Positions 3,001-6,000 of a stretch of DNA of 64,000 bases are shown here, piece after piece. This DNA comes from a bacterium. GTDB taxonomy: Bacteria; Omnitrophota; Gorgyraeia; Zapsychrales; Zapsychraceae. The DNA lies in contig JAUIER010000011.1 of the NCBI GenBank assembly GCA_030429765.1, forward strand, positions 40,187 to 104,186. The letters are read 5' to 3'. The position numbers are program-made. Numbering within the stretch: the first letter of the stretch is position 1; each line of letters opens with the position of its first letter.

Positions 3001-6000
3001 GTGACGTCCGACTTTATGTGCCCGAATTTTTCCCTGAACCACGGCCAGGTGAATAGTACGGCGATCTTGCCCCGTCACTTCCGCCACCTGCATGACCGAT
3101 AAATAGTCCGAATCAATCTGCGAATCATTCGGTGACGCTGAATCCAAATCACTTTTTGCGATGACGTAATGCCGTCCTACCCGTCTCGCCTTGAGCTGAC
3201 CGTTCCGTATTCGGGCTAGAATGGTCATCCGGTGCACATTCAGTAATTCAGCCGCCTCCATAACCGATAAATATTCCTCGAGCGGCAGCCGATGCCGAGG
3301 GAACAGCGGATACTGCTCCTCCACGTAGGAGCGCGGTATCGCGTAGCTGCGACCAATCTTGACCGCACGGATCTGACCTTTTTGAATACGCTTGCAGACG
3401 GCAACCACACTGATACCCAGAAACTGCGCGAGCTCAGTGGTCGAAATGTAGGCGTGATGCTGAGAGGACATGAAGACCTTGGTTAACAAAATCGATTTAA
3501 ATTAATCAATTATTAACTTTTTTGGTATAAATTTAGTTAACAATTGTCCATTATATAATCTATCATAAACGGATACCTTTACCTACCGAACTCTAGAAAA
3601 TATAGCTCATCGGGCAAGGGTTGAAGCTGAAACACTGCCAACACAATCATATGACTTTTTTCTACCTGACAACAAAACGCCCATAACATTGACCAGCCCA
3701 CACATCGAATTTAGGTAGACAGATCCCCATCAAAGTGTTACTCTAGGCGACTTATTGAGACCCTCTGAGGACGTCTCAACAAACGCGTAAAGTCAATGAT
3801 CACGCCCATTCTCGAAATCCGGACCATCGGAATTTCCTGTCGGTTTCACGCCTCCTATCAGCTTTTCGGATTGGCGAAACACTTTCGGCCTGGACAAAGA
3901 CTTTAGAAATCACTCTTTTAGTCTTAGTCGATTACCGATCTATTGTTTCAAGAGTTTAAGCCAAAATCTGATAATTTAAGGAAATGCGTGTATGTCTAAT
4001 CTATCATTTGAAGAACTGGGACTGTCCCCGGAAACGTTAAAGACCATCAAAGCCAAGGGTTTTGAAGAACCCTCTCCTATTCAGGAGAAAACCATCCCCA
4101 TTATTTTGTCGGGCACCGATGATATTATCGGACAGGCCCAGACCGGAACCGGAAAAACCGCCGCCTTCGGACTGCCGTTGGTGGAAATGCTGCAGGAAAA
4201 ATCCAAACATGTACAAGCCCTGGTCCTGACGCCGACCCGTGAGCTGGCCATTCAGGTCGCTGAAGAAATTCTATCGCTGAAAGGACGTAAAAAGCTGACG
4301 GTCCTGCCGGTCTATGGCGGACAATCGATTCAGCTTCAATTGCGCGGACTTAAAAAAGGTGTCGATATTGTCGTCGGAACACCGGGCCGTATCCTTGATC
4401 ATCTGAACCGAAAATCACTTAACCTGAAACACCTCACACATCTGGTCCTGGATGAAGCCGACGAAATGCTCAACATGGGCTTTCTGGAAGATGTTCAGCA
4501 GATCATGGATTACACGCCCGCGGAAAAACGCACCATGCTATTTTCAGCAACAATGCCCGCGCCGATCCTTCAGATCGCCAAGAAATATATGAACACCTTT
4601 CAGACGCTTAAAGTCACCCATGGCGAACTCACATCGAGCCGGACGGAACAGATATATTTTGAAGTGATTGAAGCGAATAAATTCGAAGCGCTATGCCGCA
4701 TCATTGATGTGGAAGAGGAATTTTATGGCGTGGTCTTCTGCCGCACCAAGGTCGATGTTGATCGGGTCTCCAATCACCTCAAAGACCGCGGTTATCCCTC
4801 TGACGCGCTGCATGGCGATATCAGCCAGGCGCTGCGTGAGAAGATCCTGACCAAGTTCAAAAACCGCCGGATCAGCATTCTCATTGCCACCGATGTGGCC
4901 GCCCGCGGGATCGACGTCCAGGACATCACCCACGTCATTAATTATTCACTGCCGCAGGATCCCGAGGCGTATGTTCACCGTATCGGACGGACCGGGCGCG
5001 CGGGCAAGACCGGCAACGCCATCACCTTTGTCACACCGGCCGAGTCACGAAAATTGCGTTTCATTCAGCGGGTGGCCAAAACCGATATCCGCCGGGAGAA
5101 ATTGCCCAAGGTCAAAGATATTATTAAACTCAAGAAAGACCGGATCTGTACACAACTGGAAACCAAGATCGAAGCCGGACTAAAGCCCGATTACATCAAA
5201 CTCGCCGAAGATCTGCTCGAACGAAATCAAGCCTCCGCCCTTCTGGCCGCGATGCTGCAGCAGACATACCGCAATGAATTGGACCCCAAGAGCTATTCGG
5301 ATATTGCCGATGCCGGTCCTGAAAAAAGCGGGACAACACGTTTGTTTGTCGGGTTCGGTAAGAAAAGCGGCTTAACCAACCGAAAGCTCGTCAACATCAT
5401 CAAGGAAAAGTGCGGTATCCCGGGTGAGAAAATCCATGATATTCAGATCCGCGATAACTTCGCCTTTATCAGCCTGCCGTTCGCGGACGCGGAGGTAGTG
5501 CTGGAATTCTTCCATAAAAACAAAAGTCGAAACGGCATGTACGTGACCAAGGCCAAGAAGGACCGGAATGCCTCACCCGGACGACCGGATAAGAAACGTT
5601 CTGGCGCGAAACGGGTGGATGGCAAGACATCTTTTGGAAAAGGACGACGAGGTAAGGCCGAGTTTCCCAAGGGAAACTTTCCGAAACGTCGTCGGAAGAC
5701 AAAATAGATTTGAAATCGAACTCGTAAAGTTTTAAATCCGCAGACCAGCCAGACGTCCGTTCGCCGGATCTTGGGGAGATTCGTCTTGAGGGGTATCGGT
5801 AAGACCGAGGATAAACGGCAGATTCTGTATCGGGGCGATATTGATGATGACCGGAACAAATCCTCCAACTTCCACGCCGGAGGCATTCCATGCTTCCGGT
5901 GTAAAGGCAAATCCCTCACCTTCACCCGAAATGTTCATTTCAACCATCGCCGAGTTCATATCAATCCCCCCGACCGGATCGGCGGTCATGGCCTTATCCG

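Follow-up and report, generated by a model that had tools for sequence, protein, structure and literature searches.

What does it mean that two bacterial proteins with unrelated middles end in the same short motif? The question is raised by a stretch of 64,000 nucleotides (the window; positions 40,187 to 104,186 of contig JAUIER010000011.1) from the Omnitrophota assembly GCA_030429765.1, in which an earlier note had seen two paralogous proteins, here called paralogs A and B, close with a common motif of about 45 amino acids (aa), GGID followed by a PVIINI-type stretch, and had suggested that it is a sorting, secretion or anchoring signal. Omnitrophota are uncultured, ultra-small and possibly predatory or host-dependent bacteria with very large secreted multi-enzyme proteins. 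We find that the motif belongs to an element of about 60 aa that is locked in position near the C-terminus of thousands of proteins with unrelated cargo. The reading that we favour, which leans on structure prediction and to which we give about an even chance, is that this element makes up the C-terminal half of a two-part bracket specific to Omnitrophota: it would dock on a conserved N-terminal domain (N-domain) and close the cargo between them into a loop.

Paralog A is the open reading frame (ORF) 5732..8809 on the minus strand (1025 aa), ending ...DPVGGIDMNSAMVEMNISGEGEGFAFTPEAWNASGVEVGGFVPVIINIAPIQNLPFILGL followed by a 22-aa tail, and paralog B is the ORF 52763..57382, also on the minus strand (1539 aa), ending ...NPGGIDLNPGIMTIESRGQGIDVATPLGNREFEDIEIDGFIPVIINVIPAGVGAKDQTISRSF. 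The sequences quoted for the shared motif are present in both, and in a six-frame regular-expression scan of the window GGID and P[VI]I[IV]N[IV] come together at only two sites, the ends of these two proteins. BLASTP aligns their last ~70 residues at 30% identity (E = 3e-6) and their first ~340 residues at 54% identity (E = 3e-126), and returns zero alignment for the middles, whose Pfam domains differ (HATPase_c in A, short-chain dehydrogenase/reductase (SDR)/epimerase in B). The cargo is thus as divergent as first described, but the description does not extend to the N-termini. The element itself is longer than was thought: it comprises GGID[LFM]N(P), some 30 variable residues, G[FIL]xP[VI]IINI.P and then xNLPxLLGL, with the consensus xxxGGID[LF]NPxx[LM]x[LM]xIxRDGxGVxLPxxxQxIxxMxIxGFxPVIINIxPVxNLPxLLGL. 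In paralog A it occupies 5801..5980 (minus strand; aa 944–1003, DPVGGIDMNS...GGFVPVIINIAPIQNLPFILGL), with GGID at 5960–5971, and matches a 60-position profile over its full length, so that the interval 5732–5900 originally given for it holds the second half and the tail and misses the first half. The element does not form the extreme C-terminus of paralog A, where an acidic tail follows (5735..5800, minus strand; aa 1004–1025, TDTPQDESPQDPANGRLAGLRI; stop codon 5732–5734), whereas paralog B does end with it. There the element (52766..52957, minus strand; aa 1476–1539) is without the terminal xNLPxLLGL and without an acidic tail, the profile match covering aa 1479–1529 (52796–52948) and positions 1–51 only; a search of the other frames for a remnant of the missing xNLPxLLGL found none. 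Mechanical ORFs of 103–160 aa in other frames overlap the reported motif site in paralog A (5443–5925 and 5469–5891 on the minus strand, 5771–6082 on the plus strand); the reading frame of paralog A is backed by thousands of homologues, and nothing was found to support the overlapping ORFs as genes.

An exhaustive search of 1.84 billion representative proteins with the 60-position profile matched 5,742 clusters when the cut-off was set at E ≤ 1e-3, and 2,385 with the stricter one of E ≤ 1e-10, which disposes of the objection that the motif might be absent from all other proteins and unconserved in orthologues. All matches listed end between 12 and 100 residues short of the C-terminus, the longest of the proteins measuring 5,808 aa, and the element is present in 109 of 121 sequences inspected (120 listed homologues of the N-domain plus paralog B). 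G4, G5 and I6 of the profile are invariant, and N9, G40, P43, I45, P50 and G59 are at least 90% conserved. Among the six-frame ORFs of the window, paralog A (77 bits, E = 3.6e-23) and paralog B (62 bits, E = 1.4e-18) score against the profile, far above what chance would give, and nothing else does. The tails that follow the element have a median length of 26 aa; 79% of them bear a net negative charge, and the charge of the first 12 residues averages −2.5; about one quarter of the family tails end in [LIV]SxLN. We thus confirm that the motif of the two paralogs is a real, position-locked element found on thousands of proteins with unrelated cargo. We give virtually no credence to the proposal that it is a functionless remnant of the common ancestry of the two paralogs: the paralogy itself is all that speaks for this, and the element, with its three invariant and six further highly conserved positions, has been kept in thousands of proteins across the phylum while the sequence up to the N-domain was fully replaced.

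The second conserved piece lies at the other end of the protein. A search with paralog A scored 8,000 candidates and gave more than 3,580 significant proteins, which match at 45–66% identity over the N-terminal third only; the named ones are nearly all proteins from Omnitrophota/Omnitrophica metagenome-assembled genomes (MAGs). The N-domain that they share is ~318 aa long, bears the landmarks VLNLPxPG...WVNLSPYE...FANLRQ...RKYFSGG and stands behind a signal peptide. A local hidden Markov model (HMM) built from 112 homologues scores 555 bits on paralog A (7733..8686, minus strand; aa 42–359, terminating in RKYFSGG) and 512 bits on paralog B (56312..57265, minus strand; aa 40–357; 54% identical to A). 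In paralog A the predicted Sec signal peptide covers 8687..8809 (minus strand; aa 1–41, ...TPSAFA/ESVLNLP), with a basic n-region, a hydrophobic core and A-x-A ahead of the mature start VLNLPxPG; the predicted signal peptide of paralog B (57266..57382, minus strand; aa 1–39, ...MDKASA/ETVLELP) is laid out as in A and the homologues, and the true start of this protein is probably the ATG at codon 3. The N-termini of the homologues are likewise alike, with a basic n-region, a hydrophobic core of ~20 residues, a small-x-small site and the mature start (S/T)VLNLPxPG, which, judged from the sequences, would make the family N-terminus a typical Sec/signal peptidase I signal peptide. Neither the N-domain nor the element has a match in Pfam, NCBIfam or PDB by sequence or profile.

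N-domain and element go together. Among 145 new top matches to the element profile, 48 have the N-domain, all of them opening with the identical layout of signal peptide and N-domain, and the remainder are mostly short metagenomic fragments. Five long carriers of the element that apparently had no N-domain were all found on inspection to be truncations or split ORFs. Two begin ~20 nucleotides (nt) from a contig edge; two have an upstream ORF in the same frame beyond a single TAA, which shows the N-domain in one case and is cut by the contig edge in the other; and in the fifth an overlapping, frame-shifted upstream ORF encodes signal peptide and N-domain, as seen in two independent assemblies. 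No verified element without an N-domain on the same (possibly split) gene was found among the cases inspected. We are therefore close to certain that both paralogs belong to this family and that N-domain and element are coupled. Because of its coupling to the shared signal peptide and N-domain the element is not an independent signal, and the earlier proposal is borne out in part only: a signal that stands alone finds no support, on this ground, on that of the acidic tail, because the element is left unfolded when modelled alone (see below) and because the window holds no cognate sortase; the N- and C-terminal module as a whole might still have a sorting or secretion role. The split genes have features of their own. 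The two in-frame TAA codons lie in nearly equal contexts, ggg ttt TAA aag ggc (L001 ~2739–2741) and gcg ttt TAA aaa ggt (L002 2302–2304), that is ..F-stop-KG.., each followed by a plausible ribosome-binding site and start, and in the frameshift-split gene (L082 3148–3175; also L083) the overlap falls at an A5 run. Such genes may truly encode two polypeptides, may rely on read-through or slippage, or may be pseudogenes.

Scanning of the GTDB species representatives by pattern, with two N-domain peptides, gave at least 596 N-domain stretches, and tblastn bore out 584 of them. Of these 584 loci the best 78 all come from Omnitrophota-type MAGs, with up to seven from one MAG; some of the 78 carry the label "uncultured Planctomycetales" in the database, and one is filed as Ca. 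Elulimicrobium (Patescibacteria at NCBI).

How the two conserved ends might relate in space was addressed by AlphaFold2 (AF2). The in-context model is that of P0021, at 681 aa the shortest complete member in hand, computed with a 79-sequence multiple sequence alignment (MSA) that aligns both conserved ends. It has a mean predicted local distance difference test score (pLDDT) of 69.4 and a predicted template modelling score (pTM) of 0.64, with 206 residues below pLDDT 50. The stretch equivalent to the signal peptide is modelled as an N-terminal helix, and the N-domain (~40–330; pLDDT 80–98) as a mixed α/β structure in which long helices accompany two long β-hairpins. A small island of helix and strand (366–392, pLDDT ~90) stands between linkers below 50, the cargo is modelled at low confidence, and after a further linker below 50 comes the element (621–681, pLDDT 74–96), with strands at 625–627, 634–639 and 661–670 and a helix at 674–678. 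The island has a counterpart in paralog A at 7607..7675 (minus strand; aa 379–401, SIRQRVLDASNRLRNGVRVTFGL), a short helix and β-strand assigned by alignment only, which corresponds to P0021 residues 366–392 by position and by its xRVxVxL strand pattern, a pattern found family-wide. As a control, the element of paralog A modelled alone (76-sequence MSA) came out as coil with no strand (mean pLDDT 65.8, pTM 0.21).

A pTM of 0.64 in spite of 206 residues below pLDDT 50 suggests that the confident parts of the model form one body; signal helix, N-domain, island and element appear to be confidently placed relative to one another, an arrangement that fits docking in cis. The cargo is not conserved, and the partner of the PVIINI strand should therefore be a conserved part, of the same chain or of another copy. 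Since the PVIINI stretch is hydrophobic on two faces, is ordered only in context and follows a disordered linker, it would pack on the N-domain and island, again in cis or on another copy. In the bracket reading, then, each member would consist of a Sec-type signal peptide, the α/β N-domain of ~318 aa, the helix-strand island, a variable cargo, the element of ~60 aa and an acidic tail. The three β-strands and short helix of the element would pack back on N-domain and island by β-strand complementation, and with the two ends of the cargo clasped in this way each member would present the same folded handle whatever its cargo, for retention, secretion recognition, localisation or assembly. We infer that the proteins are exported through Sec and that the handle helps to localise, retain or assemble their cargo; the element itself is probably neither an autonomous domain nor a tripartite sorting signal.

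The same models bear on three other accounts. One sees in the element a piece that resembles a donor strand or a dockerin and works in trans, its strands entering the N-domain of another copy to give a head-to-tail polymer or a cargo-displaying lattice. Because a monomer prediction cannot separate cis from trans, the AF2 evidence serves this account as it serves the clasp, and genes in which N-domain and element sit on separate ORFs, as well as family genes in tandem, point the same way; but the split ORFs could stem from assembly errors or represent pseudogenes, no usher or chaperone of the pilus type is encoded in the window, and we consider this account quite unlikely. Another makes the element an autonomous C-terminal secretion or sorting domain resembling the C-terminal domain (CTD) of the type IX secretion system (T9SS): following Sec export a dedicated Omnitrophota envelope machine would recognise it in trans, bring the protein to the outer membrane or through it, and possibly remove the element. 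A strict C-terminal place on thousands of signal-peptide proteins with unrelated cargo is what such a domain would show, as are the many paralogues per genome and the variable tail, known from some secretion signals, and 10.1101/2023.11.21.568195 describes type II/IV secretion and Tad loci adjoining giant Omnitrophota genes. Against this, no CTD or sorting-signal model matches at E ≤ 10, AF2 leaves the lone element unfolded where T9SS CTDs are autonomous β-sandwiches, the element is always accompanied by an N-domain that a stand-alone signal would not need, no candidate machinery lies within the window, and the element of paralog B is truncated. On balance this account is unlikely.

In the third account the element is a membrane anchor or a sortase-type tripartite signal, with the hydrophobic stretch FVPVIINIAPIQNLPFILGL spanning or entering the membrane and GGID as processing motif. 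A sortase-type signal consists of a motif, a transmembrane (TM) helix and a basic tail. The 20-residue stretch of the element contains three prolines as well as Asn and Gln and is modelled as β-strand and short helix at pLDDT 86–96; it lies ~35 residues from GGID, unlike the spacing in LPXTG or PEP-CTERM signals; the tail behind it is acidic (79% net negative) and not basic; no sorting-signal HMM matches; and paralog B does without the second half of the stretch. These findings make an anchor very unlikely, even though the mean Kyte-Doolittle hydropathy of the stretch (~1.7, by hand calculation) is enough for a call by a TM predictor and many predicted TM segments are reported in a preprint for the giant proteins of Omnitrophota (10.64898/2026.06.07.730766).

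Several points weigh against the bracket itself. Its docking on the N-domain is read from confidence values, and the in-context and isolated models come from different members, P0021 and paralog A. Short peptides, moreover, are often modelled poorly alone, even if they are autonomous. The last nine positions of the element would seem to be dispensable, since paralog B is without them, and P0052, an apparently complete N-domain protein, ends without any element. No cargo-less member, in which the N-domain passes directly into the element, occurs among ~265 proteins and several loci. Finally, ATP- or NAD-dependent cargo of cytoplasmic type behind a Sec signal is explained by none of the readings offered here; the same paradox of signal peptide and cytoplasmic cargo is noted for the giant proteins of Omnitrophota in 10.64898/2026.06.07.730766 and 10.1101/2023.11.21.568195.

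What, then, does the bracket enclose? From precomputed Pfam domains of the proteins matching paralog A, the cargo of the family is extremely varied and mostly of cytoplasmic enzyme type, with phosphoglucomutase, UDP-glucose pyrophosphorylase, GAPDH, PGI, radical SAM proteins, methyltransferases, DnaJ, HEAT, TetR, Macro, glycogen synthase and M20/M28 peptidases as examples. It ranges from ~250 to more than 5,000 aa, in members that mostly measure 600–2,000 aa. In paralog A the cargo includes a GHKL/histidine-kinase-type ATPase domain (6014..6406, minus strand; aa 802–932; Pfam HATPase_c, E = 2.2e-11), with weak NCBIfam histidine-kinase matches over aa 710–937; from its sequence it may be a GHKL ATPase other than a two-component kinase. 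By eye, within the region 5801–6700 (aa ~700–1003), there is no His at all in the ~100 residues preceding this domain, the usual place of the HisKA phospho-acceptor box. Paralog B carries an NAD-dependent epimerase/SDR Rossmann domain (53726..54079, minus strand; aa 1102–1219; Pfam Epimerase, E = 2.1e-11; NCBIfam HpnA-like, 3e-8), and its residues 358–1100 have zero family matches. Family genes can stand in tandem (L019 24–950 and downstream; L012; L048), the end of one element being followed within ~100 nt by the next signal peptide and N-domain. Short tblastn spans that had suggested "minimal" members without cargo proved to be artefacts, because they ran from the element of one tandem gene into the N-domain of its neighbour.

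Two short motifs punctuate the linkers. D-x-A-M-[LIMV] was observed 194 times against ~7 expected from shuffles (~27-fold enrichment) and S-S-P-[VILM] 187 times against ~9; both sit at domain boundaries, typically just past RKYFSGG and 4–30 residues ahead of GGID, and single proteins seem to prefer one over the other. Paralog A has DQAMI, DNAMM and DKAMT at 7703–7717, 7529–7543 and 5984–5998 (minus strand), the last of them 5 aa upstream of the element, and paralog B has DRAMF at 56189–56203 and DSAML at 52979–52993 (minus strand), the latter 10 aa upstream of GGID. These motifs could be protease sites or structural punctuation.

A route by which cargo may be exchanged is indicated by four of 255 proteins (P0121, P0262, P0063 and P0246), in which the first 20–28 aa of their own element recur internally as a truncated copy, running into a linker motif and then into new cargo. 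In P0121 the two copies (L082 5290–5350 and 6124–6184) are ~90% identical over ~50 nt and then diverge abruptly, a pattern that looks like a recombination junction. This suggests that cargo is gained or exchanged by crossing-over inside the conserved 5' part of the element, its first ~20 codons. Three other candidates for insertion or processing were rejected. A duplicated GGxxLN at the end of the N-domain as cargo insertion site is weak (23 of 167 fit a loose pattern); C39-type double-glycine cleavage after both invariant GG pairs does not agree with the varying residues upstream of the GG in the element; and for Asn-Pro autocleavage the Pro is replaced in paralog A (NS) and in other members. 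An intramolecular isopeptide through the D/N position of GGI[D/N] was likewise set aside.

Around the two paralogs the window holds further genes that deserve mention. Directly upstream of paralog A, 8909–20880 (minus strand) encodes two very large, apparently secreted proteins. The 2323-aa protein has no Pfam match but shows coiled-coil and Pro-rich segments and about ten 14-aa repeats, LSPGQ[IV]QDxxxTQ[RK], at 15667–16062; its last 330 aa gave no sequence match in PDB. The 1666-aa protein (8909–13909), whose gene adjoins paralog A, is rich in cysteine (83 residues, arranged in repeated modules of CxxC type) and carries an S8 subtilase at its C-terminal end; no other nearby protease is noteworthy. 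As a cognate processing enzyme this subtilase was discarded, its gene being missing, like that of the 2323-aa protein, from the locus of the orthologue P0004; since both large genes are absent there, they look like an insertion. Three paralogous DEAD-box RNA helicases are encoded within the 64 kb (3992–5707, plus strand; 21858–23189 and 40537–41919, minus strand), two of them with a DbpA RNA-binding domain, and one DEAD-box helicase flanks paralog A both here and in the orthologous locus L081. PADLOC defence models match neither paralog.

The bracket module offers a definition of membership in this system and a testable handle on the export and organisation of large Omnitrophota proteins. It predicts an interaction of the C-terminal strand with the N-domain, and it directs attention to the linker or processing motifs and to a recombination hotspot for cargo exchange. 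Its two domains being absent from Pfam, NCBIfam and PDB, thousands of metagenomic proteins are annotated by their cargo alone, for instance as "UTP--glucose-1-phosphate uridylyltransferase" or "HEAT repeat protein", and such annotation may misstate their cellular location. Going further, one can tentatively picture a phylum-specific display or delivery system, a possibility that we consider less likely than not by some margin. Here dozens of enzymes of cytoplasmic type in each genome would cross the inner membrane by means of the bipartite handle, and the clasp would lock in cis or exchange in trans into cargo-decorated polymers, serving surface organisation or delivery to a host or prey. Recombination inside the element would shuffle the cargo modules, with linkers of protease type (DxAML, SSSPV) between them, and the same organising principle might apply to the giant multi-enzyme proteins as well.

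It remains to place the module among known systems. Isolated C-termini and the element consensus, searched against NCBIfam (which includes the TIGRFAM sorting-signal models) and Pfam at E ≤ 10, gave zero matches, and whole proteins matched cargo families only, which bears out the first impression that the motif is not LPXTG, PEP-CTERM, a T9SS CTD or GlyGly-CTERM. A Foldseek search of PDB and BFVD with the model containing N-domain and element returned noise only, and no similarity in sequence or fold to a PDB entry places the module in a solved-structure family. Term searches of 10.1101/2023.11.21.568195, 10.64898/2026.06.07.730766 and Seymour et al. 2023 (PMC10066038) turned up no passage describing N-domain, element or linkers, and the module is undescribed in the literature searched, literal motifs included. 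The sortase, exosortase or rhombosortase gene that a cognate signal would call for was looked for among the scanned ORFs of the 64-kb window, as were secretin genes, and none was found. Both paralogs carry the signal peptide and N-domain and an element within 100 aa of the C-terminus that mark the bracket family, paralog B with element positions 1–51 only. We take the module, whose putative function is that of a common handle, to fall outside the known kinds.

The likenesses are instructive all the same. The T9SS CTD of Bacteroidota (Por_Secre_tail, TIGR04183/PF18962) is also a conserved C-terminal piece on many Sec-exported proteins with unrelated cargo, in many copies per genome; it measures 70–100 aa, however, against ~60 aa for the element, belongs to another phylum and is recognised by HMMs that have no match here at E ≤ 10, whereas the element comes out as coil when modelled alone, has no predicted fold of its own and is always paired with the ~318-aa N-domain, and no PorU/PorV-type genes were seen. 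With LPXTG, PEP-CTERM, GlyGly-CTERM and PGF-CTERM signals the element has in common a C-terminal place and a short motif (here GGID) followed by a downstream hydrophobic stretch; it differs from these tripartite signals in a gap of ~35 residues, a proline-rich stretch modelled as β, an acidic tail and the absence of a sortase-like gene from the window. LPXTG is absent from the tails of both paralogs, the family tails are acidic and no NCBIfam model, the TIGR01167 type included, matches at E ≤ 10; for PEP-CTERM, GlyGly-CTERM and PGF-CTERM the architecture of signature tripeptide, TM helix and Arg/Lys cluster is absent, and again no HMM matches. Type I secretion of RTX proteins, which have tandem GGxGxDxUx nonapeptides ahead of an uncleaved C-terminal signal and lack an N-terminal signal peptide, does not fit a single GGID per paralog, no RTX match in Pfam and an N-terminal signal peptide. 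Nor do the paralogs match the Pfam models of the C-terminal β-barrel of autotransporters (PF03797) or the N-terminal β-helix of two-partner secretion (TPS; PF05860), and the N-domain is modelled as mixed α/β with long helices.

Pilin donor-strand complementation, in its chaperone-usher and type V forms, resembles the modelled behaviour of the element in that a terminal hydrophobic β-strand would be ordered only when docked; the two are not homologous, the α/β N-domain lacks an Ig-like fold, and in the family the cargo sits between acceptor and donor. TPS exoproteins and polymorphic toxins share with the bracket family a signal peptide, a conserved N-terminal domain of ~300 aa and a swappable payload exchanged by recombination, but the bracket family is conserved at both ends, its cargo consists of metabolic and regulatory enzymes and not of toxins, and it has no Haemagg_act/TPS or toxin-trafficking match. 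Lastly, the giant proteins of Omnitrophota ("Archaeovorins"), as described in 10.1101/2023.11.21.568195 and 10.64898/2026.06.07.730766, differ in size from most bracket members with their 600–2,000 aa, yet the two have in common the phylum, N-terminal signal peptides and a Pfam repertoire of HATPase_c, radical SAM, HEAT, NUDIX and methyltransferase domains, and the bracket family itself reaches 5,808 aa.

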